A DNA stretch of 64,000 bases from an uncultured Alphaproteobacteria bacterium. Lineage in GTDB: Bacteria > Pseudomonadota > Alphaproteobacteria > ATCC43930 > CGMCC-115725. The stretch is taken from the NCBI GenBank assembly GCA_963702685.1, contig CAVPDQ010000022.1, positions 110,677 through 174,676 on the forward strand, in the 5' to 3' direction. Shown piece by piece: positions 9,116 to 46,093 of the stretch. Under the pieces are notes generated by a model that was given only the letters and a program-made list of their open reading frames with translations, was not told where the DNA came from and searched no databases. The position numbers and the translations under genes were made by a program. The stretch's first letter is position 1, and the number at the start of each line of letters is the position of its first letter.

Positions 9116-9161
9116 GTTTGGACTTCCGATGGGTTGCCCGGTGGGGTAGCAGCGACGGCGA

Positions 9162-9533
9162 CTAGGGGCCCGTGCAGAGCACCGTCGAATTGAGGCTCAG
9201 GATACGTCCGTCGTTCAATGCGACGGTGGCTTCGAGCACGTAGGTGGCGCCCAAAGCGGACGCTGGCATGCCCCCGACCGAGGCGATCGAAAAGAATCCG
9301 GCGCGGGTTTGCAGCGTGCCTGAAAGCGGATCGCGCGTTTGGATCGCGGTAGCGATCTCAGTCGCAATGATCCGCGATTGCGGGCTCGGATCCATCCCGG
9401 TCTGGTATGGAGCCAGCGCACAAGTCCAGGCGGACGACACCAGCGTCGCCGCTCCGATATCAGCGGTGAAATCGAATGCAAAATTGTCGATCTCGCCGAT
9501 TTCGATCGGGTCGAACGCAGTGGGCAAGCGCAT
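9162..9533 (-). CDS. Hypothetical phage protein (123 aa), small beta-rich adaptor-like
   Basis: The pattern FDPIEIGEIDNFAFDFTADIGAATLVSSAW resembles, from memory, small phage fibre/tail adaptor or Ig-like proteins. This is a weak call. Confidence 0.45.
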   Translation of the reverse strand: MRLPTAFDPIEIGEIDNFAFDFTADIGAATLVSSAWTCALAPYQTGMDPSPQSRIIATEIATAIQTRDPLSGTLQTRAGFFSIASVGGMPASALGATYVLEATVALNDGRILSLNSTVLCTGP

Positions 9534-9534
9534 G

Positions 9535-10227: not shown

Positions 10228-10244
10228 CTCAGCCTACCCGCCCT

Positions 10245-11048: not shown

Positions 11049-11049
11049 C

Positions 11050-11421
11050 TCAGGCGCCGTTCAGGTTGATGACGCGCCAAGTAAAGCTGCGGCTGGCGGT
11101 CGAGCCCGCCTCCAACAGCGCCGTCACCTTGAAAAAGTCCGGTGTCGGGAAGGGTGCGGTCCGGAACACGTCATAAGTCGGCGCGTTCGGGCCGAGCGTG
11201 AAATCGTCCTCGACACGGCTGTTCGAGCCGTCGCCGGACGTGTAGACGCGGATGCGGATCGTGTCGCCGTCCGCTTGGGTAGAGGTGTCCATCAAGAGCA
11301 TGAAGGTGCCGCTGGCCGCCGTCGCGCTCGCCAGCGTCGTCTCGGTCACGTTGTCGCTCGGCGCCCAAGTGCCGCTCGCCGGGTTCGGGCTCAAGAGCGC
11401 AGTGACGGCAGGGCCGGCCAT
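11050..11421 (-). CDS. Hypothetical phage protein (123 aa)
   Basis: ORF in the operon. Its start shares one base with the upstream stop. Confidence 0.5.
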   Translation of the reverse strand: MAGPAVTALLSPNPASGTWAPSDNVTETTLASATAASGTFMLLMDTSTQADGDTIRIRVYTSGDGSNSRVEDDFTLGPNAPTYDVFRTAPFPTPDFFKVTALLEAGSTASRSFTWRVINLNGA

Positions 11422-12503
11422 TATGTTGTCGTCCCTTGCGTCCGCAGGTCACCTGATCCCTTATAGGCGGCCGTCCCTGCCGGCAAAGTCAGGCGCAGCC
11501 ATAGTCCTTGCGCCCCGGCACTGTTGGGCGAGCCACCCGACGGCAAATTTCCGGGGCCCGGAATATTGACCAGCGCCGGTTGGGTTACGAACGAGCCAAC
11601 GCCTACAGCCGGTGCGGTCTGCCGATTGGCCGAGGTGTTGGTGTCGTTCAAGGAAGCGCACAGCGCCAAATCGAGCAGCGCGCCCGATGGCAGGCTCGGT
11701 GTTTCACTCAACACTTCGATTTGTGCTGCGGTCAGCGCCGTTGTGCTATTATTGTTGACCACAAACAACTTCTCGTAAAAGAGCCGGCTTGATCCACTCG
11801 GAACGTCTGCCGCCGCTGTCGCAAAACACCGGGTGATGAATTTCACCTGGTTTGGCGACGACTCGAACAGCATTCCTTGATTGACATTGTAGATGGTGGT
11901 GGCGTCCGGGACCGTGCCCCAATCTCGGTTGACCGCGACAACGTCGGCACCATAGCCAGAAGTCGCGATGATTTGGCGGAGCTGCTGAGCTCCGGTGCCG
12001 CCGGTCGTCCGGATGATCTGACCGACCGACACGTTCGCGCCGTCTCCGGATTGCATTTTGAGGAGTGCCGGCGTGGCGCCGGCATGGTTGGCCGATCCCG
12101 TTTGTGCGGTATGGGCGCTGATCACCGCGGTATGCGAAAGCAACGCGACGTCGCCAGCTGCGACGGTGCCGGCGACGGTCGCAATCGGCTTGCTGGCACC
12201 GCCACCGCCGGAGATGGCGGCATAGAGCAGGCGCTCCATGACCTTGGTGCCGTTGACCACGGTCTGGCCGTTGAGCGTCAAGGTCTCGTTTTGAACGACC
12301 CCGCTCGCATCGCGGCCGTAATAGGTGATTTGGGTCGCGGTATCGGAAACGGAGCTCGACACCACATCCAACAAACCCGTTGGAGTGATATCGTAAAAGG
12401 CGACGCGGCTCGAAAAATCTACAGCTCCGCCGATCGTCGCGCCATCGGTCTCGGGCATGTCGGCACAGCCGTACACCACGAGATCGGAAGGAAGAACGCT
12501 CAT
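11421..12503 (-). CDS. Hypothetical phage structural-like protein (360 aa)
   Basis: First ORF after the portal, beta-rich, with the C-terminal motif GLWLRLTLPAGTAAYKG. No family assigned. Confidence 0.55.
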   Translation of the reverse strand: MSVLPSDLVVYGCADMPETDGATIGGAVDFSSRVAFYDITPTGLLDVVSSSVSDTATQITYYGRDASGVVQNETLTLNGQTVVNGTKVMERLLYAAISGGGGASKPIATVAGTVAAGDVALLSHTAVISAHTAQTGSANHAGATPALLKMQSGDGANVSVGQIIRTTGGTGAQQLRQIIATSGYGADVVAVNRDWGTVPDATTIYNVNQGMLFESSPNQVKFITRCFATAAADVPSGSSRLFYEKLFVVNNNSTTALTAAQIEVLSETPSLPSGALLDLALCASLNDTNTSANRQTAPAVGVGSFVTQPALVNIPGPGNLPSGGSPNSAGAQGLWLRLTLPAGTAAYKGSGDLRTQGTTT

Positions 12504-12646
12504 CGCGGCTCCTCTTGCCTTCGTCTGTTCAGAAATTCGCCATCCGCGTCGTAGCCGCCGAACATCAAAGTTCGGTAGCAGCCTCCGGCCGGGAGACCGT
12601 TCCGGCGTGATCGCCGATGGTCTGGGGCGGAATGTTGCCGGAAGCT

Positions 12647-14009
12647 TTAGTCGGGATTTTCGCTTTGTGTCTGTGAGTCGGCGGTTCCGGCCAACGGTAC
12701 CGGGCCTCGCGAAGCCAAAAAGACCGGTTGATCGCCGCCATCGACGGGCGGCAGGCCAAGGACGCCGCGCGCCTCGTTAGGCGCATAGATGCCTGATTTG
12801 ACGTAGGTATCCAGAATAGTCGCCTGATCCTTGGGATTGGTCGAGCGCACGTCGGACCAAACGAACTCAAGGTCTGTATGGCCCATAAAATCTTGAATAA
12901 CACTGTCGATCAAGCGCTTGACCCAGCCGGCGAGCGGCGCCAATCCCTCCTCGAGGGCTGCCGCCTGGCTTGCCTCGGCGGTCGCTCGGTTGACTTGCGG
13001 TGTAAATGCAGTCGGCGGCAGGGAAAAAGCGTAGCAGACAATCCTCGCCAGCCATTCGTCGAACTCGTCCTTGTACGGGGCTTCCTTAAAGGGCTGGTAT
13101 TTGGTCCCCATGGGAGCCCAGACGAGGCGGGTCCGGGTGCCGGTGTTCCCCGCCAGGATCGAGTTCGAACCACTCCTGGAACTGCCGGATCTGCTCTGCA
13201 TTCCAGCCGTCCGGCGCATTCAGCAGACCCGGCGGCACATTGCCTTCGGTAAAATGTTGCAGCTGCATCATCTGGCGCCGCAATCCGATATTGATCGTCG
13301 TCACGATCTGCTCGCACGGGCTGAATCCATAGACTTTGTGCGGGCGCCTGTTGCGCGGCTGGTAAAGCAGCTGGTCGCTGGTCAACAATCGCCATGGTCG
13401 GCCGTGGATAACCTGCTCGTAGGCCGGCGCGGGCGGTCGCGGCCGGCGACCGGTGCCATCGATCAGCACCTTGATCGTCGAACCGTCGACGATGTCGAGG
13501 CCAATGATGTCGCCGGCCCGGTTTCGCCGCAATTCGAAAGCTGACGCATCGAGCACCAGCACGTCCTCGAGCACTTCGCGCAGCCAGGTGGCAAAGCGCT
13601 GCTCGCCATCGGGCTTGCGCCAAAACTCGGTCAAACTCCCGATACGTGCATTAGCCTCCGGCTGCGGCTGTTTTGGATTCCGCGAGCGGATCGCCCAATC
13701 CAGCTTTTCGATCTGATCTTTGCGCGTCTCGATCGCCAAGCGGGTGATGTCGTGGTGCTCTGCCAGGGCGCGCAGCTCGTGAAAGCCGATCGGCTCATAA
13801 GAACGCGGCGTGTAAATTGTGTTGTAGCCGACCGGAAAATTCCACAGCCGCACCTGCTCGCGATCGGGCGGGACCAGAGGAAAGCCGGGTGAGAAAATTC
13901 CCTGGTCGGGCTGAAAGACATCGCTGAATTGCGTGAGGTCGTTCTGTGAGCCAAAACCGCCCCAGGTGTAGGAGGCGACAGAGGCGTGATTTTCGTTGGA
14001 CGGGGGCAT
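12647..14009 (-). pseudogene. Phage portal protein, reading frame broken by a single-base frameshift near 13164-13166 (or an assembly indel)
   Basis: The N-terminal part (14009 down to ~13165) and the C-terminal part (~13165 down to 12647) lie in different frames and read through as ...QFQEWF/(D)SILAGNTGTRTRLVWAPMG... Combined length is ~450 aa. A GAGG box precedes the ATG at 14009. Confidence 0.65.
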
Positions 14010-14013
14010 CGGA

Positions 14014-14940
14014 CTACCTCGGGAAACCATGCGCGCTGGCACGCCGCGATGTCGCCGCTCCGACCAGGGACGCCATCAGCTCGTCATCGGGAAACACGAG
14101 AAATCCGAATGGATTTTCCAGCGTCCGAAAAATGACGTCATCGCTCAGAATCGTATTCCACGTGGCGGCGAACAATACAGTCCCCTCCAGAAATGTGTTT
14201 TTATTGACGCCGGCTACGACCGAGTTTGCGAAATTGGCCTCGTCCCATTGGCCCGGTGCCTTCGCCGAGCCGGCAATAGTGCTTTTCGACCGGTCATAAA
14301 AGAGATTTGCTGTTCCGGCGGCGTAATCGAGCGTCAGTACTGCTGAAAATGGCTGGCCTACGACAACAGATTGGGCAAAGACCCCGATTGTCGTGTTGTT
14401 TGTTACCCAATTCAGCGAGAAACCTAAGGCGTTGGCGGCAATTTGCAAGCTTACGCGCTGAGGCACGGCATGTCCCTCGATCCCCATCAAGGTTTGGGCG
14501 GTGGGGAGCTGCGCGTTCACCTGGGCGACCACCAGCATCGTCTGCTGTATCGGGCTCGATCGCCATGGACCCGTGCCGGCGGCGATTGTAGTGTAAATAT
14601 ACTGTGAGCGGCCGTCGAAGCCGCAGCCTTGCCCGGCTGTCGTTGTCGCAGGGCTAAATGCTGCAAATTGTGTCCGGTATGGATACCCACGCAGCGATAA
14701 TCCCCACAACGGGGCTCCCCCGGCACCCTGATTGACATTGTAGGCCGAGCCGTCGAGGTGGTAAGCGTCGACCATAAATTCGGTGATCGGATCATCGGCA
14801 AGACGTGGAATACCCGGCGGTCGATAAAGACCGCGCGAAATTCGCGGGCCTACGCCGATTGCGTCCGCAGGGCGTGTCGTCATCAACCCCGTGCTGGTGG
14901 CGGCGAGCCCGGCCAACACGTTCCGCCTGTTTGGACGCAT
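14014..14940 (-). CDS. Exported protein with twin-arginine-like signal, possibly a jelly-roll/lectin-like fold (308 aa)
   Basis: Start moved to the internal ATG at 14940 (TGATG overlap). N-terminus is MRPNRRNVLAGLAATSTGLMTTRPADA. The upstream extension of the tracked ORF is Arg-rich junk. Confidence 0.55.
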   Translation of the reverse strand: MRPNRRNVLAGLAATSTGLMTTRPADAIGVGPRISRGLYRPPGIPRLADDPITEFMVDAYHLDGSAYNVNQGAGGAPLWGLSLRGYPYRTQFAAFSPATTTAGQGCGFDGRSQYIYTTIAAGTGPWRSSPIQQTMLVVAQVNAQLPTAQTLMGIEGHAVPQRVSLQIAANALGFSLNWVTNNTTIGVFAQSVVVGQPFSAVLTLDYAAGTANLFYDRSKSTIAGSAKAPGQWDEANFANSVVAGVNKNTFLEGTVLFAATWNTILSDDVIFRTLENPFGFLVFPDDELMASLVGAATSRRASAHGFPR

Positions 14941-15479
14941 CAATATTGCACCGCTGTCGGCGCGAGGACCACGGTGTTTCCCGAGACGTTCAGTGTCTGG
15001 CCGCTGTTGTTTTGGCACAGCAGCTTGAACCTCAGCGCCGGCACCCGAACCAGGCCTTGCGACAAGAAGATCGAGGTGCCGGACACCGACGTGGCCGGTA
15101 ACGGAAAGACGACATCGGGCGCGCGTGGCGGGGCCGAGGTCCCGCTCTCGAATGCCGCTCCGTCGACGGTTTGTAAAAACCAGCAAGAGACATTGCCGCC
15201 GGTATTGATTGCGCCGGCCGTCGCGCCCAAGGTCAGGATCATCGGCGCCCAAATCACTTGCGCTGAAATGGCATTGTTGAATACGCCGCTTGTCCCGCCG
15301 AGTGCGCTGACCGCTACCGAGCCCGAAGCCAGGGCGTTGAGCTCCGTGCTCATCAATGTCTCGGCCGCCGCGAAAAGCCCAGTGTTCGAGGGGCCTGGCT
15401 CCCACAGAAACGGCGTCGCTGCGCGAGCCGTCAACGGCGCGCCGACGGCTAAGGCGAGCATCAGCCAGCGTCGCATCAT
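14940..15479 (-). CDS. Exported hypothetical protein (179 aa)
   Basis: The start at 15479 overlaps the upstream stop (TGATG). The signal-like N-terminus is MMRRWLMLALAVGAPLTARA. An alternative ATG lies at 15491. Confidence 0.55.
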   Translation of the reverse strand: MMRRWLMLALAVGAPLTARAATPFLWEPGPSNTGLFAAAETLMSTELNALASGSVAVSALGGTSGVFNNAISAQVIWAPMILTLGATAGAINTGGNVSCWFLQTVDGAAFESGTSAPPRAPDVVFPLPATSVSGTSIFLSQGLVRVPALRFKLLCQNNSGQTLNVSGNTVVLAPTAVQY

Positions 15480-16432
15480 CAGTTTACCCATGAGTTGCCC
15501 GCTGCATCGCAGGTGACGGCGCGCGCGTCGTAAGGCGGCGCTCCCGGAGTGCTGGCGCCCATGACGAAGCTGGCGCCGCCGTCGATAGCGCCGGTCGAGG
15601 GGGCCAGCGTGATCGCATTGCCGGCATCGTTGCCCGCACCGTCTTTAACCAGAAAGGTAAACCCGGGAGAACAGGTGAAACTTACTGTCGTCGCGGCCGG
15701 CGTCGTCTTGTCGATCACGATCAAATAGTCCGCAGCAGGTGACACGATAACGGGGCCGGATGCTGTGACCACCCGGATCGGCACGAAGAGCGCGCCGCTC
15801 CAGGTTGACGTTCCGGCGTAGGTGTTGTTGCCGGCGAAGATCATGTTCGCGGTCAGGCTCGTCGGCAGGCGCCCCGCCGGCAGCGTGCCGGACGCAATGT
15901 TTGCGGCATTCGTCGTATCCACCGCGCAAGAGGCGGCCGCGTTCGACAGATCGTTGCACGAGGGCTGCGATGAATGCGGGCCGCCGGCGGTCGAGATGCT
16001 GTCGAGCCATTGATGCGCCACACTGGCGAAGCTCGTGACCCCGCCTAATGCGGTGGGCGCCGGCGAAGGCAGGTCGGCCCCCGAAATTTCCCGAGGCACG
16101 AGCCCGCCGCCCGACCCGTTCGGTGACGCCAAGAACATGTTGGCAGCTTGTGTCACGGTCGTAAGCGACAATGTCCCGGCGGATGTAACCGGACTGCCCG
16201 ATACCGCGAGCCAGGAGGGCGCGGTCAAGCCGACGCTGGTCACCGTGCCGCTTCCGGCAGAGCCACCGTCCTCGATTTGGCCGCTGCCCGCCCAAGTGGC
16301 GACGTGACCGGCTGTAACGGCGCCCGCTTGACTGATGCCTCCGCTCGTCACGCTATACTGCACCGATTGAGACCAGGCCGAGGTGCTCCCCAATAGTAGT
16401 GTTGCAGCCCCCGCGACGAGCGAAAGCCTCAT
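15479..16432 (-). CDS. Tail-fibre-like protein with a signal-peptide-like N-terminus (317 aa)
   Basis: The start at 16432 forms an ATGA overlap. N-terminus is MRLSLVAGAATLLLGSTSAWS. Fibre-type motifs are present: GTVTSVGL, SGSPVTSAGTLSL and ASGTLPAGRLP. Confidence 0.55.
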   Translation of the reverse strand: MRLSLVAGAATLLLGSTSAWSQSVQYSVTSGGISQAGAVTAGHVATWAGSGQIEDGGSAGSGTVTSVGLTAPSWLAVSGSPVTSAGTLSLTTVTQAANMFLASPNGSGGGLVPREISGADLPSPAPTALGGVTSFASVAHQWLDSISTAGGPHSSQPSCNDLSNAAASCAVDTTNAANIASGTLPAGRLPTSLTANMIFAGNNTYAGTSTWSGALFVPIRVVTASGPVIVSPAADYLIVIDKTTPAATTVSFTCSPGFTFLVKDGAGNDAGNAITLAPSTGAIDGGASFVMGASTPGAPPYDARAVTCDAAGNSWVN

Positions 16433-16821
16433 TGCGCTCTCGCCTTGAAAAACGCGGTTGGGCTCGCGGTCTTGGTAAAACATCCCGTCGTGCTAAATAC
16501 AGCGACTATCCCACGAGTATAAATATCGGGCGGACCCGTGAAATTGATCGAAATCGTGCTGTTTATCGGCGCCACCACACATTCGACCGGCGTCACCGGT
16601 CCATCTGCGGGTGCTGTCGCGGCGTTGAAGGTCATCACAAAACCGGCCGTGCTTCCGGTCGTCACGTAGAGCGAATAGAGGTTTCCGGGACCGCTCTTGA
16701 TCAATCGACTGGCTTCGACGGCGGATGAAACCACCGGAGCGATCCCGGGCTCGAATGCCCAGCCGTGCCGGTTGGCGAGGACTAATATCAATAGGCAAGC
16801 AGGCCCCAAAATTCTTTGCAT
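16429..16821 (-). CDS. Small exported hypothetical protein (130 aa)
   Basis: ATG at 16821 is preceded by GAGG. N-terminus is MQRILGPACLLILVLANRHGWA. Confidence 0.55.
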   Translation of the reverse strand: MQRILGPACLLILVLANRHGWAFEPGIAPVVSSAVEASRLIKSGPGNLYSLYVTTGSTAGFVMTFNAATAPADGPVTPVECVVAPINSTISINFTGPPDIYTRGIVAVFSTTGCFTKTASPTAFFKARAQ

Positions 16822-16830
16822 CTTCACCTC

Positions 16831-19395
16831 TCAAAATGACGAGAGCGGCGCCCGCTTCCACGTGTTCGGGGCTGAGCAAAAGTAGACATAATTGATGTCG
16901 GCCTGAAGCTGGCCGGTGTTGCATGCCGCCGAGCTGGAGGCGGGGGTGCCGGGCGAAATCAATCCGCCGAGATCGTTGATCGTCTGAGGCGTGGCCGACA
17001 CGACCCGAAAGTTGCTGCCGTCGAAGCGGAGCTGGAGATATTCATAATTCTGGCCTGCGGCGACAGCGATCGAGGAGACCGCCGCACCACCGCCTGCCGG
17101 TTCCAAGATTGCGCCGCCGGAGACGCCGTTGACCCGTACGGTAAGCGATTTGCCGTTGTCCGTCGTAAATCCCATGGTCCAGCCGGCGCCAATCGTGGTT
17201 GTGGACGGCAAGGTCACGGTGAGGCCGACGGCGGTGTTGAAGCTCGACAAGGCATTGCCGTTGTCGCTCGTTGCGGCGGCATAGGTTGCTGCCGATGGAA
17301 AATTCCAGCGGTTGATGTCGGTGGCCGAGCCGGCGATGCCGATCAGCGCCGCCGTCGCGGGCGTCGCATCGGTGACGCGGAAATTGCTGCCGTCGAACCG
17401 CAGCACCACAAACTCGTAGCTGCCAGGCGCCAACGACGCTGTGGTCACCGTAGCGCCGCTGCCGGGATAGAGGATATGACCGCCTGAGACGCTGTTGGCT
17501 TGGACCGAAACCGTCTTGTTGTTGTCCGTGGCGAGCGCTATCGTCCAACCCATCGGGAGGCTGGTGGTGGGGGGCAGGGTCACGGCCAGAAACCCGAGCG
17601 GGCTGTTGGAGCTCGACACGATATTGCCGTTGTCGGCGACGCTGGCATCGTAGGCGCTGACCGCAGGAAAGCTCCAATGGCTGAGTGCCGTAGCACCCAG
17701 CATTCCAATCGCCTGGGCGGTCGCGGGCGTCGCCTGGACAACCCGGAAATTGCCGCCCCCGTCATATTGCAGCACCATGAATTCGTACGCCCCCTGGCTG
17801 GTGTTTGCCATGGCGACGCTGGTCACCGATGCGCCGCTGCCGGGCCAGACGATGTGGCCGCCCGAGCTGCTGTTTACCGCAACCGATAGCGGCTGCCGGC
17901 TGTCGGTGGCAAAGCCCAAGCTCCAGCCGGTGGGCAATCCGGTTGTCGGCGGCAACGTAACGGCAAGACCCGAGGCGGTATTGAAGCTGGACAGCACATT
18001 GCCGTTGTCGGCGAGGGTCGCGGAATACCCGGAGCTCGATGGATAGAGCCAATTGCTGGGCCATGGCGGCGGCTCAAAACCATTCGTCAGGCGGGTGTTG
18101 CGGGTGGAAGAGACCAGGCGCCAATTATTGCCGTCGGATTGCAGGCGAACATATTCGTAGTTGCCGGCGCCGAGGGTGATCGAGGGTTGGAACTTGTTTC
18201 CCGAGACGATACTGCCGCTGGGTGCGGCCACGATCATCCCTTTGCCGTTGTCGGTGGCGAACGCCATCGTCCAGCCGGGATTGACATCGGCGATCGGCGG
18301 CAATGTGACCGTCATCGACGCGCCGGGCGTGTTGAAGCTCGAAATCGCCATGCCGTCATCGATCGGCGCCGCAGTGTAGGTGGCCGCCGTCGGAAACAGC
18401 CATTGGGTGCGCGATCCGGTCCCTTGAACTGAAATGCCGATCGAGTTCGGCCCGAAGTTCACAGTGTTTCCGCCATAATTCGGATTGATCAGCATATTGC
18501 CGATCGATGCGGTCGCATCGACCGCCGTAGCGCAATCGAAATAGGGCGAGACGAAGGTGTTGAGCCCGTTGTGGTTGAATGTAATCGACAGGCAGGTTGG
18601 CGACGCTTCCAAGTCCAATCCAAAAAAGGTATTTGAAAAGTTGAAGCCGTTTTCCAGGACGAGCGCGCGCCCGCCCGTTGCCTGCGCCGTGCCGGCCCCG
18701 GAAATTCGGGAGAATTGGGTCTGCTCGAACGCCATTCCGGCGCCACCGCCTGCCGAGTCGCAAACCGCATAGATGTCGCTGTCGAGCACCGAGTTGAATT
18801 GGCAACCGCCGGCAGCGGACGCGCTCGACGCGTTATTGACGACCAGGTGATCGATCTTGGCCGAGTTATGGGCATCCGAAAAGTCGGTCTTGCCGATGAC
18901 GACGGCGTAGGTCGGGGTGGCCGCATCGATAAAGAGCGTGCCTTCCTCCTTGAAATAAAAGCATCCGGTCGGGCTGCCGACAGTGCCGCCGCTGCATTCG
19001 ACCTGCAGCACCGGCCCTGAAGCGATGCCGCGGCCGTCGATAACCGCGCCATCGGAAACCAGCCGGAAGCCTCTGCCGGCTTGTCCGGCATAGTCGATCG
19101 TCAGCTCGGCGGTCACTTTGTAGGTGCCAGCCGATAGATAAACCGGCCAACCGTTGGCGATCCCGCTGTCGATTGTGCTCTGGATCGCTCCGGTGTCGTC
19201 GTGACTGTCGTCGCCGACGGCACCGTTGCAACGGATGTCGATCCATGGGTGGCCGCTGCACACCAAGACGTCGCCGCCAAGGGTCGCGGTGCCGGTAGTC
19301 GACAAGGTCGAAAAATTGCCCGGTGCTTGCGCTAGGCTGGGCCAGGCGATCCCGAATCCCAAGCTGAGCGCGGCAAGTCCCAGCGCCGTCTTCAT
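16831..19395 (-). CDS. Pectate-lyase-fold (tailspike/depolymerase-like) protein with a signal-peptide-like N-terminus and four C-terminal tandem domains (854 aa)
   Basis: Start moved to the ATG at 19395 (TGATG overlap with the upstream gene). N-terminus is MKTALGLAALSLGFGIAWPSLAQA. It carries the motif NGAVGDDSHDDTGAIQ...VYLSAGTYKV and four ~100-aa repeats. Confidence 0.65.
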   Translation of the reverse strand: MKTALGLAALSLGFGIAWPSLAQAPGNFSTLSTTGTATLGGDVLVCSGHPWIDIRCNGAVGDDSHDDTGAIQSTIDSGIANGWPVYLSAGTYKVTAELTIDYAGQAGRGFRLVSDGAVIDGRGIASGPVLQVECSGGTVGSPTGCFYFKEEGTLFIDAATPTYAVVIGKTDFSDAHNSAKIDHLVVNNASSASAAGGCQFNSVLDSDIYAVCDSAGGGAGMAFEQTQFSRISGAGTAQATGGRALVLENGFNFSNTFFGLDLEASPTCLSITFNHNGLNTFVSPYFDCATAVDATASIGNMLINPNYGGNTVNFGPNSIGISVQGTGSRTQWLFPTAATYTAAPIDDGMAISSFNTPGASMTVTLPPIADVNPGWTMAFATDNGKGMIVAAPSGSIVSGNKFQPSITLGAGNYEYVRLQSDGNNWRLVSSTRNTRLTNGFEPPPWPSNWLYPSSSGYSATLADNGNVLSSFNTASGLAVTLPPTTGLPTGWSLGFATDSRQPLSVAVNSSSGGHIVWPGSGASVTSVAMANTSQGAYEFMVLQYDGGGNFRVVQATPATAQAIGMLGATALSHWSFPAVSAYDASVADNGNIVSSSNSPLGFLAVTLPPTTSLPMGWTIALATDNNKTVSVQANSVSGGHILYPGSGATVTTASLAPGSYEFVVLRFDGSNFRVTDATPATAALIGIAGSATDINRWNFPSAATYAAATSDNGNALSSFNTAVGLTVTLPSTTTIGAGWTMGFTTDNGKSLTVRVNGVSGGAILEPAGGGAAVSSIAVAAGQNYEYLQLRFDGSNFRVVSATPQTINDLGGLISPGTPASSSAACNTGQLQADINYVYFCSAPNTWKRAPLSSF
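16990..18402 (-). repeat. Four intragenic tandem repeats of ~100-118 codons
   Basis: Repeat units start at WLFP, WLYP, WSFP and WNFP. They share the core DNGN.LSSFNT..GL.VTLP....GW...F.TDN........GG.I.....YE...L..DG.NFRV..AT. Confidence 0.8.
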
Positions 19396-19832
19396 CACCA
19401 CCGCCGTGCCGCAAACGCCTGTCCCGTCGTAGCACCCAGGAGGCTGACGACCCCTGCCGGTCGATATCCAGCAGGTGTCGCGAAAACGCCGCCCGCGGCA
19501 ACCGGTATCGACGCGCCGCCGGAAACCGCGGCGCCGACATCGGAAACATAAAGCACTGCCGACGAGTTGTTCGCCACGAGATAGCCATTGGTCGGCGCTA
19601 CACCGCCGAACAATGTCTGCGCCGAACCGCCGATCGCCACTGTCCCGCTGCCGTCGAGCGCGGCGGATCCGGCCGCATTGATCACTGGCAGCGGGGCAGC
19701 GCTGCTGATCGGGGTCGCGATGCCGCCGGCAATCGTCGCCGGCAAATGAACCGGGACCAGGTTGCCGCCGCCGTCGAGCCCGGTCGCGAGCGACTGCGTC
19801 GCAGTATTGGCGTCCTTGACCAGCAGTGTCAC
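19395..19832 (-). CDS. Hypothetical Gly/Ala-rich phage protein (145 aa)
   Basis: First ORF after terL: MTLLVKDANTATQSLATGLDGGGNLVPVHLPA... It has better coding character than the overlapping Arg-rich extension of the 1026-aa tracked ORF. Confidence 0.55.
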   Translation of the reverse strand: MTLLVKDANTATQSLATGLDGGGNLVPVHLPATIAGGIATPISSAAPLPVINAAGSAALDGSGTVAIGGSAQTLFGGVAPTNGYLVANNSSAVLYVSDVGAAVSGGASIPVAAGGVFATPAGYRPAGVVSLLGATTGQAFAARRW

Positions 19833-19907
19833 TGTCGAGATCCTCCTCGGCAGCCCCGGGCATGGTGTGCCGATCCCGTCTCGGGGCTGATTTCCTGGGA
19901 ATAGCGA

Positions 19908-21272
19908 TCAAGCCTTCGGCGGGTCGAATTCCGATCGCCGATCGTTGAGCCGCCGGTACACCTCATAGATCCCTTGGGCGGCGCCGGGCTCGATCAGCAA
20001 GTCGGTCAATGCCCAAACCAGGGCATCGACCCGGTCGGGAGAATAGCCGGCGGCCTTGCTGTCGAAATCACCTCGCGGACCACGGCTGAAGGTGCACATC
20101 TGGTCTTCGAGCCGCGCGAACGAGCCGACATGATGAACTCGGCCTTGCTCATAGAGTGCCGCGACCGGCTCGGCGCGGGTGATCTTGCCGCGCGCCGCGT
20201 GCACCGCGGAAAACGAAGCGTTAGGGTCGATCACCCGCAGCGTGGCCTCGACCATTTCACCACCGTTATTGACCTCGGCGACAATCCGGTCGGCCCGATG
20301 GGCGCGATAGGCCGCGATCGCCACCTTCGCCCACGCGGCTGGCGTGTAGCGGCCCGATGCATCGGCCAGCACCCAGCCATGCCCTTGGCTGTCTTTGCCG
20401 GCGACGACGATCCCGGTCTCGTCTGCCTCGTCGCCCGAGCTGACCGCCGGATCGATCGCAACCACCACCCGTTCGAGCTCCGGCGGCGAAGGGCTGCGGC
20501 ACGCCTCGATTAGGCCCCGGCTCCAGAGGGCGCCCGGAAGATCGTCGAGAAGCTCGGCCTCGAGCTCTTGACGGCCGAGGCGCGTTCCTTGGTACTTCCG
20601 AACGATCCCGGTCAAAAAATCGGGCGCCAGGTTGGCGCGGTTCTCAAAGGTCGTGCCGCGGGTCAGGGCGATTTTCGAATCGCCGAGAAGGCCACGGATC
20701 AGGCTTGTCGGCCGCGGTGTCGTGGTGACGACGACTCGCGGGTCCGAACCGAGGCGCAGACCGAACATCAGCATGTCCCAGGCCGCGGGATAGCGCCAGC
20801 TGCCGAGCTCGTCGCACCAAGCCGCATCATGTTGAGGGCCGCGCAACCGCTCCGGCTCGTCGGCGCTGAAGAGCGTGGCAGCGGCGCCGTTCGGCCAGGT
20901 CAGCCGTCGCTTCGACGGCTCGTAGAGCGGGCGATCATCGGAATGCGAAATCTCGAGGATACCGCTCTCCCCCTCGACCATGACGTTACGCGCGTCGGTC
21001 GCGGTAGGTGCCACCAGCGCCACCCGGCGCGCTGTTCCCGCCCGCACCCGCGCCCGCACATATTCGGCGCCGGCTCGTGTCTTGCCAAAGCCGCGGCCGG
21101 CTATCAGCAGCCAAACCCGCCAATCGCCTTCCGGCGGCAGCTGGGCACGCCATGCCCAGAACGACCATTCATCGAGCAGTTTCCGCGCCTGGGTCCGGCT
21201 CAGCCCGCTGATCAGCCGGTCCCTCAGCGCTGGCGGCTGCGAGGCGAGCCAGGCGGCGTTTAAGGACCTCAC
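19908..21272 (-). CDS. terL: Terminase large subunit
   Basis: 454 aa with Walker A GRGFGKTRAG and the N-terminal pattern LLDEWSFWAWRAQLPP typical of this terminase family. GTG start is preceded by GGAGGAGGA. Confidence 0.9.
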   Translation of the reverse strand: MRSLNAAWLASQPPALRDRLISGLSRTQARKLLDEWSFWAWRAQLPPEGDWRVWLLIAGRGFGKTRAGAEYVRARVRAGTARRVALVAPTATDARNVMVEGESGILEISHSDDRPLYEPSKRRLTWPNGAAATLFSADEPERLRGPQHDAAWCDELGSWRYPAAWDMLMFGLRLGSDPRVVVTTTPRPTSLIRGLLGDSKIALTRGTTFENRANLAPDFLTGIVRKYQGTRLGRQELEAELLDDLPGALWSRGLIEACRSPSPPELERVVVAIDPAVSSGDEADETGIVVAGKDSQGHGWVLADASGRYTPAAWAKVAIAAYRAHRADRIVAEVNNGGEMVEATLRVIDPNASFSAVHAARGKITRAEPVAALYEQGRVHHVGSFARLEDQMCTFSRGPRGDFDSKAAGYSPDRVDALVWALTDLLIEPGAAQGIYEVYRRLNDRRSEFDPPKA

Positions 21273-39370: not shown

Positions 39371-39718
39371 TCAAAGAAGCGCGTCGGCCGCGTAGGCATA
39401 AGCGGTCGAGAGACGTGTGTCTTGCAGCAACTCGCCGATATCGCAGCCATAGGCGGTGCAGATCGCGGCGAGATCGGCGAAGTGAATGCGCCGCGATCCG
39501 GTTTCGATCCGATGATAGGTGAGGCGGGGCATGCCGAGGACCTGCCCGGCCGCCTCCTGGGTCAATCCCAGCGCACGCCGGCGCCGGCGCAACGCCGAAC
39601 GGATACAGGCTTGTGCATCATCGGCTCGTCGCATCGATCTCTCCTGCTGTTGCGAGCGGAACAATCCGGCGCCGAGCGCCGTGCCTAGGCGCGCCCGTTT
39701 GGATCGTCCAACGCCCAT
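39371..39718 (-). CDS. XRE-family transcriptional regulator (115 aa), probably leaderless
   Basis: HTH LGLTQEAAGQVLGMPRLTYHRIETG. The ATG at 39718 lies 7 nt downstream of the predicted -10. Confidence 0.7.
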   Translation of the reverse strand: MGVGRSKRARLGTALGAGLFRSQQQERSMRRADDAQACIRSALRRRRRALGLTQEAAGQVLGMPRLTYHRIETGSRRIHFADLAAICTAYGCDIGELLQDTRLSTAYAYAADALL

Positions 39719-39723
39719 GTTTC

Positions 39724-39770
39724 TAATATCGCATATATAGCGAATTTTGTCAAGCAAAAATGCGATATTA
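39724..39770. promoter_or_regulatory. Promoter plus 11-bp inverted-repeat operator in the divergent XRE / acyl-CoA dehydrogenase intergenic region
   Basis: Perfect inverted repeat TAATATCGCAT (39724-39734) / ATGCGATATTA (39760-39770). The minus-strand promoter is TTGACA-N17-GATATT (39753-39725). Confidence 0.6.
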
Positions 39771-39842
39771 TTATCAGATATATGGTTCTTGACCCCCGTG
39801 GCGGCGGCAGGGACGATCGGGCCGAGCGTCCGGAGATCGCCG

Positions 39843-41030
39843 ATGGATTTTGCGCTGACCGCCGATTTGGTCGAGTTGAAGGAGCGCACCGAGGAGCTTG
39901 TGCGCGCGCGGATCGTCCCGCTCGAGGACGATCCGCGCCAGACCGCGCATGGTCCCAGCCCGGAACTGCGCCGCGAGCTTGTCGCGCTCGGGCGGCAGGC
40001 CGGGCTGCTGTCCCCGCATGTCGGCCCCGAATGGGGTGGCCTCGGGCTCGATCACCGCGCAAAAGCTATTGTTTTTGAGGCCGCAGGCTATTCGCCCCTA
40101 GGACCGGTTGCGCTCAACTGTGCGGCTCCCGACGAAGCCAACATGCATCTTCTCGAGCAGATCGCCGAGGAGCATCAGAAGGAGCGTTGGCTGCGCCCGC
40201 TCGCCGTCGGAGATATCCGGTCGTGCTTTATGATGACCGAGCCGGCTCCCGGGGCCGGGTCTGATCCATCGATGCTGCAGACGACGGCGCGGCGCGACGG
40301 CAGCGAGTTCGTGATCGATGGCCGCAAATGGTTGATCACCGGGGCAGTTGGTGCCGAATTCGCAATCATTATGGCAAAAACCGGGGGCGATGAAGCCGGG
40401 CCGGCCGGCGCAACGATGTTCCTGTCGCCGATGAGCGCGCCCGGCATAACGATTGAGCGGGTGCTCGATACGCTCGACAGCTATATGTCGGGCGGCCATG
40501 CCGTTATCCGCCTCGACGGCCTGCGGGTGCACGAAAGCCAGGTGCTGGGCCGGGTCGGCGAGGGCTTTCGCTATGCCCAGGCGCGGCTCGCGCCGGCGCG
40601 GCTGACCCATTGCATGCGCTGGCTCGGCGCCGCCTGCCGCGCGCACGACATTGCCACCGATTATGCCCGTCGGCGCCGCGCCTTTGGCAAGCCGCTCGGC
40701 GAGCACGAAGGCGTCGGCTTCATGCTGGCCGACAACGAGATGGATTTGCATACGAGCCGCCTCGTCATTTGGCATACCGCCTGGGTCCTCGACCAGGGTC
40801 GGCACGGCCGCCATGAATCGAGCATGGCCAAGGTGATTTGCTCGGAAGCGATCTGGCGGGTTGTCGACCGCAGCATGCAGATCTTGGGTGGCCTGGGCAT
40901 CACCGACGATACGATCGTGGCTCGCCTCTTCCGCGAAATCCGCCCGTTCCGCATCTATGACGGCCCGTCCGAGGTGCATCGCTGGTCGATCGCCCAGCGC
41001 ATCCTCCGCGGCCAAGGGCGGGCGTCATGA
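39843..41030 (+). CDS. Acyl-CoA dehydrogenase family protein
   Basis: Start set at MDFALTADLVELKERTEE. Has the ACAD fold, and the C-terminal RIYDGPSEVHRWSIA matches the conserved IYEGTSEI region. Confidence 0.85.
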   Translation: MDFALTADLVELKERTEELVRARIVPLEDDPRQTAHGPSPELRRELVALGRQAGLLSPHVGPEWGGLGLDHRAKAIVFEAAGYSPLGPVALNCAAPDEANMHLLEQIAEEHQKERWLRPLAVGDIRSCFMMTEPAPGAGSDPSMLQTTARRDGSEFVIDGRKWLITGAVGAEFAIIMAKTGGDEAGPAGATMFLSPMSAPGITIERVLDTLDSYMSGGHAVIRLDGLRVHESQVLGRVGEGFRYAQARLAPARLTHCMRWLGAACRAHDIATDYARRRRAFGKPLGEHEGVGFMLADNEMDLHTSRLVIWHTAWVLDQGRHGRHESSMAKVICSEAIWRVVDRSMQILGGLGITDDTIVARLFREIRPFRIYDGPSEVHRWSIAQRILRGQGRAS

Positions 41031-42198: not shown

Positions 42199-42256
42199 TC
42201 TCTCACTCGAAGCGACGCTCCATGCTGCTCGCTTCGATTCTCAAGTCGCGTACCGG

Positions 42257-42682
42257 CTAGAATTCCGGAGCCAACAAGGCGACCAGCTCAATCGCGAGGC
42301 GGTTCAGCAAGACCGCGTGATCATTCGCGACAATCCCCAAGATCAGAGCGTGGCCCTCGTTCTCCAGGGCGGGATCGTGCTCGACAGCCAACGCGACACG
42401 GGCGTCTCTGCCTGCGGCTCTGATCCGTCCGACGTTGAATTTGGCAAATATATGCGTCCGCCGGACCGTCCGAGTCGCGCATATCGCTTGCACCGCAGCT
42501 CGCTGGGGATCGGCCGATCAGCCAAAACATTCGACCCAGGTGACCGAGATTCCATTTGGATTGTCATCGCGGAGGGCATCCTTCGTGACTCCGACGGCTT
42601 CCCCCGTGTCAGAGCGTTCAATCGATGTCCCGGAGCAATGACGGAGGACGTGATGCTCGTCGGGTACCGGGTCCCCCTTCAA
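42257..42682 (-). pseudogene. Hypothetical protein interrupted by an in-frame TGA (last gene of the orphan operon)
   Basis: One frame reads ...DEHHVLRHCS...GISVTWVECFG-TGA(42518-42520)-SADPQRAAVQAICATRT...FAKFNVGRIRAAG...EHDP...GHALILG... A TTG start overlaps the upstream stop (TTGA). Confidence 0.5.
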
Positions 42683-43197
42683 AGGAGCAGCCAGCCTCGA
42701 TAGCCTGCGAGCTGGTCGTCGAGTCGTGAAATTGGGCAAATCCCGCCCGTCATCGTCGGCAACTCGCCGTCTCGGGCATCGACCGCGGACCATTGGACGT
42801 GCTTATCGTCGATAAAATCGACCGATAGCCGCGCCTTCTGCTCAATAGCCGGTCTCCAATTTCCTACGAAAATCCCCTCGTGGGTCAGGGTCAACGACGG
42901 CGCCCTGGTCCACGGACGCGCCGCCAAATAAGCCAGCAACGCCTCAAAGGACTTTCGATCCGGACCACCGGAAAGCTCAGCCAAATCTTCCTGATCCCCC
43001 AGAAGGTACGAGAGCTGCCGCTTCACACGGTTGAGTGTCACCGTCAAAAGGTTACCCCTCCATTTCTCCAGGATGTTCTGGAACCGGGCCAGGGCGCCTT
43101 CTCCACGCAGATTGGCAGGGTCGGGACTAGGAGCGGCCCCGCCCGGGTCATCCTCGCTGGCGATCCACGTCCTGGCCGTCAGATTTGAAGAGATCAC
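42679..43197 (-). CDS. Hypothetical protein (172 aa), orphan operon gene 3
   Basis: GTG start lies 1 nt after the upstream TAA. No recognisable motif. Confidence 0.6.
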   Translation of the reverse strand: MISSNLTARTWIASEDDPGGAAPSPDPANLRGEGALARFQNILEKWRGNLLTVTLNRVKRQLSYLLGDQEDLAELSGGPDRKSFEALLAYLAARPWTRAPSLTLTHEGIFVGNWRPAIEQKARLSVDFIDDKHVQWSAVDARDGELPTMTGGICPISRLDDQLAGYRGWLLL

Positions 43198-43198
43198 T

Positions 43199-43555
43199 TT
43201 ATTTCGAAGAATCTCCCCAACCAGCGTTAAAATCCCAATGGTTGCTGTCTCCTGCCTGTCGAGAACACTTGAGCCGACGCAGGTGAGGTTGGTAACTGCC
43301 GAGGCCTTGCCCAGGATCAGATGGCGATCGATTTCGATCTCTGTTGTCCGAACTCAGGTTCTCTGCGGAAAAGGGGTAGAAGACGATATTTCCCCGCTTA
43401 GAAATATGAGCGACGTCGGAGAAGGTCGATACCGTCACCCTGGACCCACTATACTGGCGCCGCTCGGTATCCTCAAAGCAGAGGCCCTCGAAGGGGTGGG
43501 TTCCGACCAGCGATGTTCGTCGAGTCCGGCCTTCTTCGGCCAGGCGGGCGTTCAT
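43199..43555 (-). CDS. Hypothetical protein (118 aa), orphan operon gene 2
   Basis: Start forms an ATGA overlap with gene 1, and this is the only open frame here. The C-terminal half is rich in Ser, Arg, Asp and Gly. Confidence 0.5.
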   Translation of the reverse strand: MNARLAEEGRTRRTSLVGTHPFEGLCFEDTERRQYSGSRVTVSTFSDVAHISKRGNIVFYPFSAENLSSDNRDRNRSPSDPGQGLGSYQPHLRRLKCSRQAGDSNHWDFNAGWGDSSK

Positions 43556-44295
43556 GGGAGTTCCCCGCTTTCTAAATTTTGGAGGGCCATCTCGATCAGC
43601 TCGTCATGTATATCCCCGAACCGGGAATTGTCCAATGGAGACTGCCGCTCGGCAGGCGTGTTATGATCGCATTCGACCCGAGTGTAGACACCGCCAATTC
43701 CGGAAACGGGGCCCGCAACACCGGAGACCTGAATCTGCAACGCTGACCACCGCGTAATCCGGTTGAGCTCAACCTCCGGCCCCAGCGACCTGCTTGCCTC
43801 AGGTCGGTTGATTGCATAACTGAGGTCCCGGCTGTGTTCCGCATCGATTTTGACCGACGGCAGATACTCTTGAAGCGCTTTATACGCGGTTACCCTGTCC
43901 GGCATCGGGATCACCGCAGCCACCCCAATAGCGAGACGATTTGATGTAATCTGCGCCGTTATCAGCCACTTACGAACAACCCGATTGAACGCCGAGAGCG
44001 CCGGTTCGACAGGCCCGAACTCGAAGGGAGGCACCGCTTCCGTGAGAACTGGCGGCGCCGGTACCATGATCCAATCCAGTCGCCCCGCCAGCCCCTGGAA
44101 CTGCAAGCTGAGATATCCAGGGTCGATCGGGCCTCCCTGCTCACGGAAAAGCTGACGGGGCTGAACCTGATCGATCGCGGGCGTTTCACCGGTCGCGCGC
44201 TCCCATTCATCCTGAGGAATTTGCTCGGCAGGCGGCTGGAGGAAAGCCGTAAATCGCAGCGTTTGGGCCGACCATGGGCGAGTCAGCTGTTCCAT
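43552..44295 (-). CDS. Hypothetical protein (247 aa), orphan operon gene 1
   Basis: ATG preceded by GGAG. No recognisable motif. Confidence 0.65.
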   Translation of the reverse strand: MEQLTRPWSAQTLRFTAFLQPPAEQIPQDEWERATGETPAIDQVQPRQLFREQGGPIDPGYLSLQFQGLAGRLDWIMVPAPPVLTEAVPPFEFGPVEPALSAFNRVVRKWLITAQITSNRLAIGVAAVIPMPDRVTAYKALQEYLPSVKIDAEHSRDLSYAINRPEASRSLGPEVELNRITRWSALQIQVSGVAGPVSGIGGVYTRVECDHNTPAERQSPLDNSRFGDIHDELIEMALQNLESGELP

Positions 44296-44344
44296 CGAAG
44301 CTCCGTGCTGCTGGCCACCGCCGAACGTTCAGCGCCGGCATCTA

Positions 44345-44383
44345 ATCATAAATAGGCAAACGGTGGTAAGAGCTCCGTTTGCC
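44345..44383 (-). terminator. Intrinsic terminator-like hairpin
   Basis: The minus strand reads GGCAAACGG-11 nt-CCGTTTGCC followed by TATTTATGAT. Confidence 0.55.
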
Positions 44384-44521
44384 GACCCTGTCCCAGTATT
44401 ATCTCTGCGGCTGCAGCGCACCCGCTTGGCCGCGTCTTTCGGGATCGGCTGCTGCTGCACGCGTCGTCACGCTGGATACCGCAAGAACAATCAGGCAGGC
44501 GTTGATCAAGGATCGCGTGAC

Positions 44522-44550
44522 CTTATAGCATATTCGATCGTAATTGTCAA
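44522..44550 (-). promoter_or_regulatory. Near-consensus sigma70-type promoter
   Basis: The minus strand reads TTGACA-attacgatcgaatatgc-TATAAG with a 17-nt spacer. It shares TTGACAA and ATATGCTATAAG with the terS promoter. Confidence 0.55.
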
Positions 44551-44605
44551 TATAGCAATCTCCAAATTGGGAAGTTGCGGGGCTTTGGCACCCTCAGGTC
44601 GTATG

Positions 44606-46093
44606 TCAGCGGTTGGGGAGGTCGAGCGGGTAGATCGGACGGCGGACCTTCTCGAATTTGAGCTGCGAGTAGTCCGAGGTGCATACGCCCACGCCGGCGC
44701 AATCGACGACGGCCTCGGCCATCGGCCCGAGCCCGGCGCGCCAGTGGATGCGGCTTTTGAGCATCACATAGCGCTTTTGAGTCGGATCGATGCCGAGGCT
44801 CAAAAGGCAATTCAAATCGGATGGCTCGACATGGCGCGAGATCAGCACGATCTCGACCGCGCCGGTATCGAGCACGACCGCCGGGCCCATTTCCATTGCC
44901 ACGCCGCGCGCCATCGGCCCGCGATTGTTGTAGCGCCCGTCGGAAATCGTTTTGACCCGGCCGGTCACGGTCAAGGGCGGGCTCTCGGCCGGGATCGAAG
45001 GCATCGCGATCTTGCCGCCGATCGACAGGGTTACGCGTGCGCCGATGCCGGCGGCGATGGCTTGTTGCACCGCGTCGGGGTCGCAGATCGCAAACGCGGC
45101 GACGCCTTCGAGGCCTTGCCGCAGGATTTCGGCCAAGACCGCGGTCGTGTCCATCGTGCCGCCCGAGGCGCAATTGTCGTAATGGTCGAGCAGCACGATC
45201 GGGCCGGCGCCGGGCGCAATCGCCTTGGCCCTGGCGACCGAGCTCGCCAGCGGCTCGATCTGGTAGACAAAGGCGCCGCGCTCGACCCAGGCGCGGTCCA
45301 GCAGCTCGTCGCGCAAATCCTCGGCGAGCTTGCGGTTGCCGTCGGTGACGACGAGAGCGGAGAGCCCGGCATTCCTTATGTCGGCGTGCGGGAAGCCGGT
45401 AAAGAGGCTCGCCGCCAGCGCGCCCTCGCTGCTCATCGCCGCGCAGCGCTGCTGCAATTCCTGGTTCGGATGGTCGTCGCTGCCCTGCCGCATGACATGC
45501 GGCAGCATCGGCTGGTTGCCCCAGGCCATGACCGGCCTGACCTCGCCGCGGATCGTGCGTAAGAGGATATCGCCGGCAAGCCGTGCGGTCTCGTAAGTGT
45601 CGATATGCGGGTAGGTGCGGTAGCCGGTGACGACCGTCGAATTGGCGACGATCTCGTCATAGAGGTTGGCATGCATGTCGAGCGAGACCGCGACCGGCGT
45701 TTTCGGGTCGATCGCGCGCAGCCGCTTTAGAAGCTGCCCTTCGCCGTCCTCCAGGCTCTCGGTGACCATCGCACCGTGCAAATCGAGCAGGATGCCGTCG
45801 AAGCCGCCCTTGGCGACGTCCTCCAGGATCGTGTCGGTGATGTGCGCATAGGCGGCATCCTCGACCGGGCGGCTCGGCGGTGCACCCGCCGCGATCGGCA
45901 ACACGATCTCGGCGCCTGCACGCTCGGCCAGGTCGAGATAAGCGCCGAGCCCGGTGCCGGTGCCGCGATAGGCCGCGGCCGCCGCCTCGCCATAGAGCGG
46001 GCCCGGACCGTTGCCGAACCGCGTCAGCGGCGTCGGCACCGGCGAAAAGGTGTTGGTCTCGTGCTTCATCATCGCGATCAGCAAGCGCATCAA
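44606..46093 (-). CDS. M81-family metallopeptidase (MlrC-like)
   Basis: The N-terminus (MMRLLIAMMKHETNTFSP) is typical of the MlrC/DUF1485 family. 495 aa. Confidence 0.75.
   Translation of the reverse strand: MMRLLIAMMKHETNTFSPVPTPLTRFGNGPGPLYGEAAAAAYRGTGTGLGAYLDLAERAGAEIVLPIAAGAPPSRPVEDAAYAHITDTILEDVAKGGFDGILLDLHGAMVTESLEDGEGQLLKRLRAIDPKTPVAVSLDMHANLYDEIVANSTVVTGYRTYPHIDTYETARLAGDILLRTIRGEVRPVMAWGNQPMLPHVMRQGSDDHPNQELQQRCAAMSSEGALAASLFTGFPHADIRNAGLSALVVTDGNRKLAEDLRDELLDRAWVERGAFVYQIEPLASSVARAKAIAPGAGPIVLLDHYDNCASGGTMDTTAVLAEILRQGLEGVAAFAICDPDAVQQAIAAGIGARVTLSIGGKIAMPSIPAESPPLTVTGRVKTISDGRYNNRGPMARGVAMEMGPAVVLDTGAVEIVLISRHVEPSDLNCLLSLGIDPTQKRYVMLKSRIHWRAGLGPMAEAVVDCAGVGVCTSDYSQLKFEKVRRPIYPLDLPNR

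Follow-up and report, generated by a model that had tools for sequence, protein, structure and literature searches.

A foreign three-gene cassette with a defective copy in an uncultured alphaproteobacterium, and its possible place among conflict modules

Small size, translational coupling, a sporadic distribution and a foreign composition characterise type II and tripartite toxin–antitoxin (TA) modules, which sit on islands and beside other TA pairs and are prone to decay. CapRel-type fused TA systems are defence systems in which a hypervariable sensor domain is attached to a conserved module. In this work, we describe a cassette of three genes, which we name A, B and C, that recalls both and that lies at 42199–44605 of a 64,000-nucleotide (nt) stretch of contig CAVPDQ010000022.1 from an uncultured Alphaproteobacteria bacterium (assembly GCA_963702685.1). 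This whole stretch is hereafter the window, and coordinates refer to it unless a locus number (L001 to L025) precedes them. The cassette shares with TA modules every one of the features just listed, the effector-like gene being the first to be lost in its decay, but its proteins are larger than typical TA components and have no homology to toxin, antitoxin, helix–turn–helix or ribbon–helix–helix (HTH/RHH) or SecB-like chaperone families. The likeness to the CapRel type would lie by analogy in gene B, whose product combines a fast-evolving with a strongly conserved domain, whereas neither sequence nor fold relates the two. Temperate phages (P2-like) and satellites carry defence hotspots (PMC9122126), which may be compared with a related gene triad in a Ralstonia P2-like prophage and with a cassette near a serine recombinase ORF at L021, whereas A, C and B of the window type have no match in phage records. 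The cassette is far from any described system: none of its products falls in a characterised family, and their sole named relative is TIGR04255, an entry that NCBIfam titles ‘sporadically distributed protein’, that is itself uncharacterised and for which, under this name and its synonyms, a search of the accessible literature found no paper.

The 2.4-kb segment between the stops of two flanking genes is a horizontally acquired island that carries a single operon of three translationally coupled genes, A-B-C (Table 1). Its GC content is the lowest of any 2.4-kb stretch in the window (0.587, compared to a window mean of 0.646 with a standard deviation of 0.023), windowed values run from 0.56 to 0.60 inside the island and from 0.67 to 0.70 in the flanks, and GC at third codon positions (GC3) is 0.58–0.69 for the open reading frames (ORFs) of the island compared to 0.86 for the flanking genes. 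As codon usage agrees, base composition and codon usage both deviate from the flanks in the manner of a genomic island. A preliminary description of this DNA, made from its letters alone, had judged by eye that the segment is less G+C-rich than its surroundings and that it fills the gap between two convergent genes, and both statements hold, the neighbours being a DUF917/S-Me-THD gene (+) and an M81/MlrC peptidase gene (−). Neither direct nor inverted flanking repeats were detected at the island ends, no mobility gene lies in the window (such genes do occur at other cassette loci), and an Rfam scan of the island matched no family.

The same description proposed a unit of four genes on the minus strand. 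The coordinates it gave for the first three, 43552–44295 (247 amino acids, aa), 43199–43555 (118 aa) and 42679–43197 (172 aa), are correct, a 142-codon frame with one in-frame TGA does occupy 42257–42682, and the junctions read ATGA, TAA-a-GTG and TTGA as it had them, which upholds translational coupling. The genes are three instead: its second and third frames (ORF2 and ORF3) belong together as a single gene, B, which a +1 frameshift interrupts, and its fourth frame (ORF4) is C. When one T is removed at 43351/43352, codons 1–68 of ORF2 fuse to the frame of ORF3 and an open gene of 291 codons results, the product of which differs at only two residues from P0082, the 291-aa B protein of sister assemblies. 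ORF3 is the C-terminal half of B, with 62% identity to residues 155–311 of the B protein of L002 (E = 2 × 10−58), and ORF2 shares just its start with B, its residues 69–118 being without counterpart in any homologue. Because the one-base repair restores the 291-codon gene, these residues are an out-of-frame translation, which also accounts for the flat pattern of GC over the three codon positions (GC1/2/3) in ORF2; the Ser/Arg/Asp/Gly-rich tail that had been taken for a disordered segment of the second product is therefore a frameshift artefact. A functional operon of four genes, with ORF2 and ORF3 as separate products and the TGA of ORF4 read through or recoded, could appeal to four open and tightly packed frames. 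It is very improbable, given that B is a single gene at every other locus, that ORF2 combines a wrong-frame tail with the lack of a coding GC pattern, that A and B of this operon themselves end with TGA as a normal stop and that no homologue has a stop at the position of codon 55 of C.

The copy in the window is defective, as two of its three genes, B and C, are broken by a frameshift and a nonsense codon relative to intact orthologues; gene A is intact in the window and in all sister assemblies. Four Logan assemblies are 99.7–99.8% identical to the window over the island and its flanks. All four assemblies that cover C (the window, L014, L015 and L016) carry its TGA, seen in L014, L015 and L016 as a 78-aa product (P0035), and the nonsense codon is thus real and lineage-wide. 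The extra T at 43351/43352, in turn, occurs in the window only and is absent from L007, L014 and L015, so that the frameshift may be a mutation confined to the window or a fault of its assembly; the B of L015 is called intact, with 291 aa. L007 and L014 share another frameshift in B, the loss of a G at 43438–43440. This deletion is linked to an A-to-G change at 43416, and the two define a sub-lineage in which B was frameshifted a second time, independently.

That the window frameshift is an error of assembly or sequencing, in which case the organism would have intact A and B genes and a broken C only, is a minority possibility. The extra T forms part of a homopolymer of two bases and is seen in this assembly alone, and the 172-aa fragment of B is recorded solely from a 200-kb NCBI/ENA contig, which also holds the exact A of the window, whereas the cluster records contain three intact 291-aa variants of B on at least five Logan contigs of the same lineage, in addition to two truncated calls of 252 aa. 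The G deletion, however, is common to two independent Logan assemblies, and indels in B are therefore genuine events in this lineage. A high rate of indel errors is also hard to reconcile with the large genes nearby, which are intact in the window, an argument that is limited by the portal gene at 12647–14042, which is split as well.

Table 1 Features of the island and its flanks, and cassettes of related loci
Feature	Position	Strand	Remarks
Low-GC island	42199..44605	.	Stop of DUF917/S-Me-THD gene to stop of M81 peptidase gene; GC 0.587
DUF917/S-Me-THD gene	ends 42198	+	Flank, convergent with M81/MlrC peptidase gene
M81/MlrC peptidase gene	44606–46093	−	Flank, convergent with DUF917/S-Me-THD gene
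Gene A	43552..44295	−	Intact, 247 aa; homologues, dN/dS, coding-type GC1>GC3>GC2
Gene B	42679..43555	−	Pseudogene, intact form 291 aa; spans ORF2 and ORF3
Frameshift in B	43351..43352	−	TT versus single T in sister assemblies, +1 after B codon 68; private to window
ORF2	43199..43555	−	B codons 1–68, then 50 out-of-frame codons; flat GC1/2/3
B C-terminal domain	42679..43107	−	Residues ~150–291, including stop codon; homology, confident model
Gene C	42257..42682	−	Pseudogene, 141 codons, TTG start overlapping B stop; 63–71% identity to intact C
In-frame TGA in C	42518..42520	−	Codon 55; mostly Q in close homologues, K, G and others also occur
Ribosome-binding site of gene A	44301..44304	−	GGAG in 9/10 aligned upstream regions; GGCA in L005
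Upstream element	44340..44370	−	CTTACC-N17-19-(A/G)TG(A/G)TTAGAT; aligns in 10/10 upstream regions
Cassette of L017, Sphingobium xenophagum			253-204-162 aa, overlapping genes
Cassette of L018/L019			183-253-148 aa, overlapping genes
Cassette of L020, Mesorhizobium			245-202-147 aa, overlapping genes
Cassette of L021, IMG/VR contig			261-215-178 aa, overlapping genes
Cassette of L022, Sphingomonas			248-201-174 aa, overlapping genes

The operon had also been labelled an orphan, which it is not, as homologous cassettes are present in many genomes. At least 11 independent loci have three genes (L001, L002/L003, L005, L008, L011–L013, a JGI contig, L017, L018/L019, L020, L021 and L022), with an A of ~250 aa, a B of 200–319 aa, a C of ~140–175 aa and overlapping junctions. 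At the close loci with enough sequence (L001, L002/L003, L008, L011–L013 and the JGI contig, to which tblastn added L005), A is followed by a B of 291–319 aa and then by a C of 141–149 aa every time. The window cassette belongs to this family by the homology of its second and third genes to B and C, their order and their overlaps, and at the more distant L020 the third gene matches the C profile with an hhalign probability of 99.65%. Co-occurrence, which the preliminary description had named as a thing to look for, is indeed found, as the three genes keep their order in surroundings that are unrelated and in part island-like or mobile. The cassettes form an uncharacterised family that occurs sporadically, mainly in Alphaproteobacteria.

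Genes A and C and the C-terminal domain of B are under purifying selection, with a ratio of non-synonymous to synonymous divergence (dN/dS) of ~0.1–0.2 and proportions of non-synonymous differences (pN) of 0.14–0.29, compared to saturated synonymous ones (pS) of 0.62–0.81. High-GC genomes do yield many spurious ORFs, and this region has many overlapping ones on both strands, but homologues down to E = 1 × 10−160 in a conserved gene order, dN/dS well below 1 and a structure model with a predicted local distance difference test (pLDDT) score of 95 leave the idea that the ORFs are chance open frames and no genes with next to no probability.

Twelve close homologues of gene A have 57–99% identity, and the pattern over its codon positions is of the coding type. 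The family is large, with 2,623 representative clusters at E ≤ 1 × 10−3 and 1,989 at E ≤ 1 × 10−10 in an exhaustive HMMER search, and none of 46 sampled members matches Pfam or NCBIfam models. The A profile recovered one locus from genomes, one from metagenomes and none from viral sequences. The start of A is miscalled in several records (L001 8001–8981, 326 aa; L004 8001–8522, 173 aa; L018 6695–7246, 183 aa), and as tblastn reveals a full-length A of ~250 aa in L005, which is the same contig as L004, the length variation of A in databases is partly an annotation artefact.

Upstream of A, a ribosome-binding site and a second, more distal element (Table 1) are conserved, the latter 45–75 nt before the ATG, in sequence that is otherwise unalignable across the 10 regions compared, and we conclude that the cassette travels with its own control element. 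The conservation of the distal element makes it a possible promoter or operator; a promoter scan found no canonical sigma-70 match in it. Two other candidates, TTGACA-17-TATAAG at ~44547–44519 as a promoter and a hairpin at ~44385–44355 as a terminator or attenuator, were dropped, being neither conserved at other loci nor called by the scanner.

The first gene of the cassette encodes a bona fide TIGR04255 protein in L017 (E = 3.8 × 10−33) and L020 (E = 5.4 × 10−24), which with 115 and 85 bits served as positive controls for the NCBIfam cut-off of TIGR04255.1 (30 bits). Against the same model, the window A stays below the cut-off with no match at E ≤ 1, and none of the 46 A-family members matches at E ≤ 0.01; TIGR04255 proteins thus differ from A in that neither the window A nor 45 sampled relatives match their model. 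They are alike in length (~250 aa), in their first position in the cassette, which TIGR04255 proteins also hold at L021 and L022 ahead of homologues of B and C, and in a weak colinear profile alignment. The first gene comes in a window type, from the large family without a model, and in a distant type, TIGR04255 itself. In hhalign, A6 aligns with four TIGR04255 proteins colinearly over the full length (29–259 versus 27–244) with a score of 28.7, the best of 30 column shuffles reaching 23.7, at a sub-significance P of 0.0023 and a probability of 12.7%. This is suggestive, not proof, of homology between the A family and TIGR04255.

Two further units are headed by proteins of this kind. On plasmid pCRI9333.03 of Crinalium epipsammum (L025 4983–6813), an annotated TIGR04255 gene heads a 253-182-171 aa unit in which it shares 4 nt with the next gene and the partners have no similarity to B or C, and the first gene may therefore be a core that pairs with interchangeable modules. 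A Ralstonia P2-like prophage record (L024) has a distant TIGR04255-headed triad at one end, with weak matches of its second gene to B (P = 0.038) and of its third to C (P = 2.8 × 10−4); the record, labelled UNVERIFIED_ORG, apparently continues into type VI secretion genes of the host.

A profile search for C found 62 family members, and the model of one homologue, P0016, has a pLDDT of 95.4 and a predicted template modelling score (pTM) of 0.89, for a compact alpha/beta protein of ~140 aa. Conserved in the family are, in P0016 numbering, Pro7, Val12, Cys16, Ala36-Phe37, Asp41, Gly44, Ser46-Val47, Trp49, Glu51, Val84, Val100, His102, Pro104, Asn108, His111 and Gly116, and in the model the conserved Cys, His, Glu and Asn residues on a compact fold suggest an enzyme or a ligand-binding site. 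A Foldseek search with the C model gave no match in the PDB (best E = 1.2), and its sole structural neighbour is the BFVD entry A0A9E7QQI2, an unnamed 149-aa viral protein (E = 1.8 × 10−3, template modelling (TM) score 0.45, 18% identity). Proteins of the ART fold (AvrPphF ORF2 and DarT) came up with Foldseek TM scores of ~0.3, which we treat as noise. Neither an HNH-like reading of the motif EHDP...N..GH nor a Cys-His triad was retained, as spacing and predicted secondary structure are unlike those of canonical His-Me fingers in the first case and of papain-like folds in the second.

Protein B consists of two halves that evolve very differently. Its C-terminal domain, with 52–62% identity to the counterparts in L001, L002, L008 and L011 and 54 homologues found by its profile, is modelled by AlphaFold with a pLDDT of at least 84 in every 10-residue block over residues 151–290, and more than 90 in most. 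In the model, residues ~150–290 form helices, then a five-stranded sheet and then two helices, an alpha/beta arrangement for which Foldseek found no match in the PDB (best E = 0.3). The N-terminal half (~100–170 aa) is hypervariable, with a pN of 0.46–0.65, near saturation, and essentially unalignable between cassettes that are otherwise 55–77% identical. Its pLDDT is below 50, as expected where the alignment is uninformative. A fast-evolving folded domain is more likely here than a disordered linker, as the hydrophobic periodicity looks strand-like by eye. With C and the C-terminal domain of B, two of the three proteins thus have confident models without a solved structural relative.

The preliminary description could place the first three products in no family and saw no nuclease- or HTH-type signature in them, and we concur: scans of all products with Pfam, NCBIfam and PADLOC (PADLOC-DB v.2.0) gave no match, and we found no recognisable toxin, nuclease, nucleoside triphosphatase (NTPase), HTH or defence domain. 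When the distant cassette proteins and PHROGs were included, nothing appeared beyond TIGR04255 in L017 and L020, apart from one weak PADLOC match among the distant proteins (PDC-M02B, E = 0.016). Pfam and NCBIfam thus provide no toxin, antitoxin or antitoxin DNA-binding domain by which the cassette could be counted among the type II or tripartite TA modules. Against the sequences of the PDB, neither the single proteins nor the profiles produced more than noise. No match was returned by tblastn for the window A in plasmids (72,556 records), for the close C homologue P0013 in phages (50,697 records) and plasmids (72,556), or for the intact B P0082 in phages (50,697 records), and no signal peptide, membrane segment or secretion-marker domain was found in A, B or C.

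The surroundings of the cassette differ among loci. On L021, a predicted viral contig, a large serine recombinase ORF lies upstream with one 139-aa ORF in between, and L022 has Phage_AlpA and many hypothetical genes nearby. GmrSD_N occurs in the context of L020, MT-A70, AAA_25 and TIR-WD40 in that of L001, and ParB_N and DUF5681 in that of L002; at L018, ParE and RES TA pairs lie no more than 7 kb away. A solo C-like gene of 176 aa, with 32% identity to the Sphingobium C, is found on plasmid pRgalR602b of Rhizobium gallicum (L023 7956–8486), beside a VapC/DUF433 TA pair and near nif genes, without an A or B partner. Genes related to the type VI secretion system (T6SS) recur near triads or C-like genes, which could be a coincidence between islands: genes resembling PAAR and DUF4123 by eye directly follow the distant triad in the Ralstonia phage YO139_2 record (L024 2317–3442), a Tle1-like lipase gene (L004 13644–14333) lies ~5 kb from the cassette and TagO (L023 12230–12892) ~4 kb from the solo C-like gene.

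Taken as a whole, the best explanation is that of a foreign, conserved A-B-C cassette, defective here, that would be a conflict module, and we consider this combination probable by a small measure. Its last component, that the cassette is a conflict module of the abortive-infection, defence or TA-like addiction type carried as cargo on mobile DNA, is plausible on its own at somewhat less than an even chance. It draws on the sporadic distribution, foreign composition, tight coupling and mobile or island contexts of the cassette, as well as on the hypervariable domain of B and the order of decay, a fixed nonsense codon in C followed by polymorphic frameshifts in B. In such a module, C would act as an effector enzyme that B regulates or lends specificity to, the fast-evolving N-terminal domain of B might sense an invader or a partner protein, and A would act as a TIGR04255-like scaffold or co-sensor. 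Loss of the effector C first, followed by independent frameshifts in B, would then be the decay of a module whose effector was already dead.

Several observations weigh against this interpretation. No cassette protein has a toxin, nuclease, NTPase, HTH or defence domain, neither the C nor the B model has a PDB fold match that would offer a biochemical handle, and the phage and plasmid record searches were empty for A and C of the window type and for B. The neighbourhoods with defence genes were noted case by case, and at several loci (the window, L008 and L017) ordinary metabolic genes surround the cassette and defence genes are absent. The link between A and TIGR04255 is below significance thresholds and, as the contig derives from a metagenome-assembled genome, faulty assembly could account for the frameshift in B.

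Part of the same evidence could be read as that of a conserved cassette with a role outside defence and TA, such as an accessory regulatory or stress module, a function in maintenance or transfer of a mobile element, or a T6SS effector/immunity set. The absence of a diagnostic defence or toxin domain, the many loci embedded among metabolic genes and the T6SS-related genes near L004 (Tle1-like), L023 (TagO) and L024 (PAAR/DUF4123 by eye) would all fit. Yet these T6SS neighbours differ from locus to locus, none of A, B and C has a signal peptide, membrane segment or secretion-marker domain, and it is conflict systems that more typically combine a sporadic distribution with foreign GC, tight coupling and a hypervariable domain, so that we consider a role of this kind unlikely.

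A broader form of the conflict-module interpretation, which we regard as doubtful, is that A-B-C and its TIGR04255-headed relatives constitute a widespread, undescribed three-component family of immunity or abortive-infection systems. C would then be an effector with a fold absent from the PDB, B would join a conserved regulatory domain to a hypervariable one that senses invaders, and the core shared by all would be the TIGR04255-like protein, which could pair with other effectors as well.

Elsewhere in the window, an XRE-family HTH protein of 172 aa is encoded at 39371–39889 (−), 2.4 kb from the cassette, with HTH_31/HTH_3 matches and a weak match to an Xre-like antitoxin HTH; its gene lies in a patch of lower GC (0.59–0.61) between a TamB-like and an acyl-CoA dehydrogenase gene. 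A prophage remnant occupies 6977–19911 on the minus strand and comprises a prohead-protease-like gene (S78/DUF6582, 6977–9115), a portal gene split into overlapping ORFs (12647–13219 and 13086–14042), which is a second frameshifted gene or an indel error, and a putative, pectate-lyase-like tail fibre gene (1026 aa, 16831–19911). The second lowest-GC stretch of the window (~11.5–15.5 kb, 0.595–0.61) falls within this remnant.

For annotation, these results mean that the ‘118-aa’ and ‘172-aa’ hypothetical proteins are fragments of one gene, and that B and C at this locus should be labelled pseudogenes. Functional work cannot use the window copy itself, but intact relatives are suited to it, such as those in L002 (GCA_041643115.1), L005, L017 (Sphingobium xenophagum) and L020 (Mesorhizobium). 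Should the cassette prove to be a conflict system, TIGR04255 and an A family of ~2,600 clusters that lacks a model would gain a first function, two protein folds without a solved relative would be added, and the fusion of a conserved module with a hypervariable sensor would have a further example.

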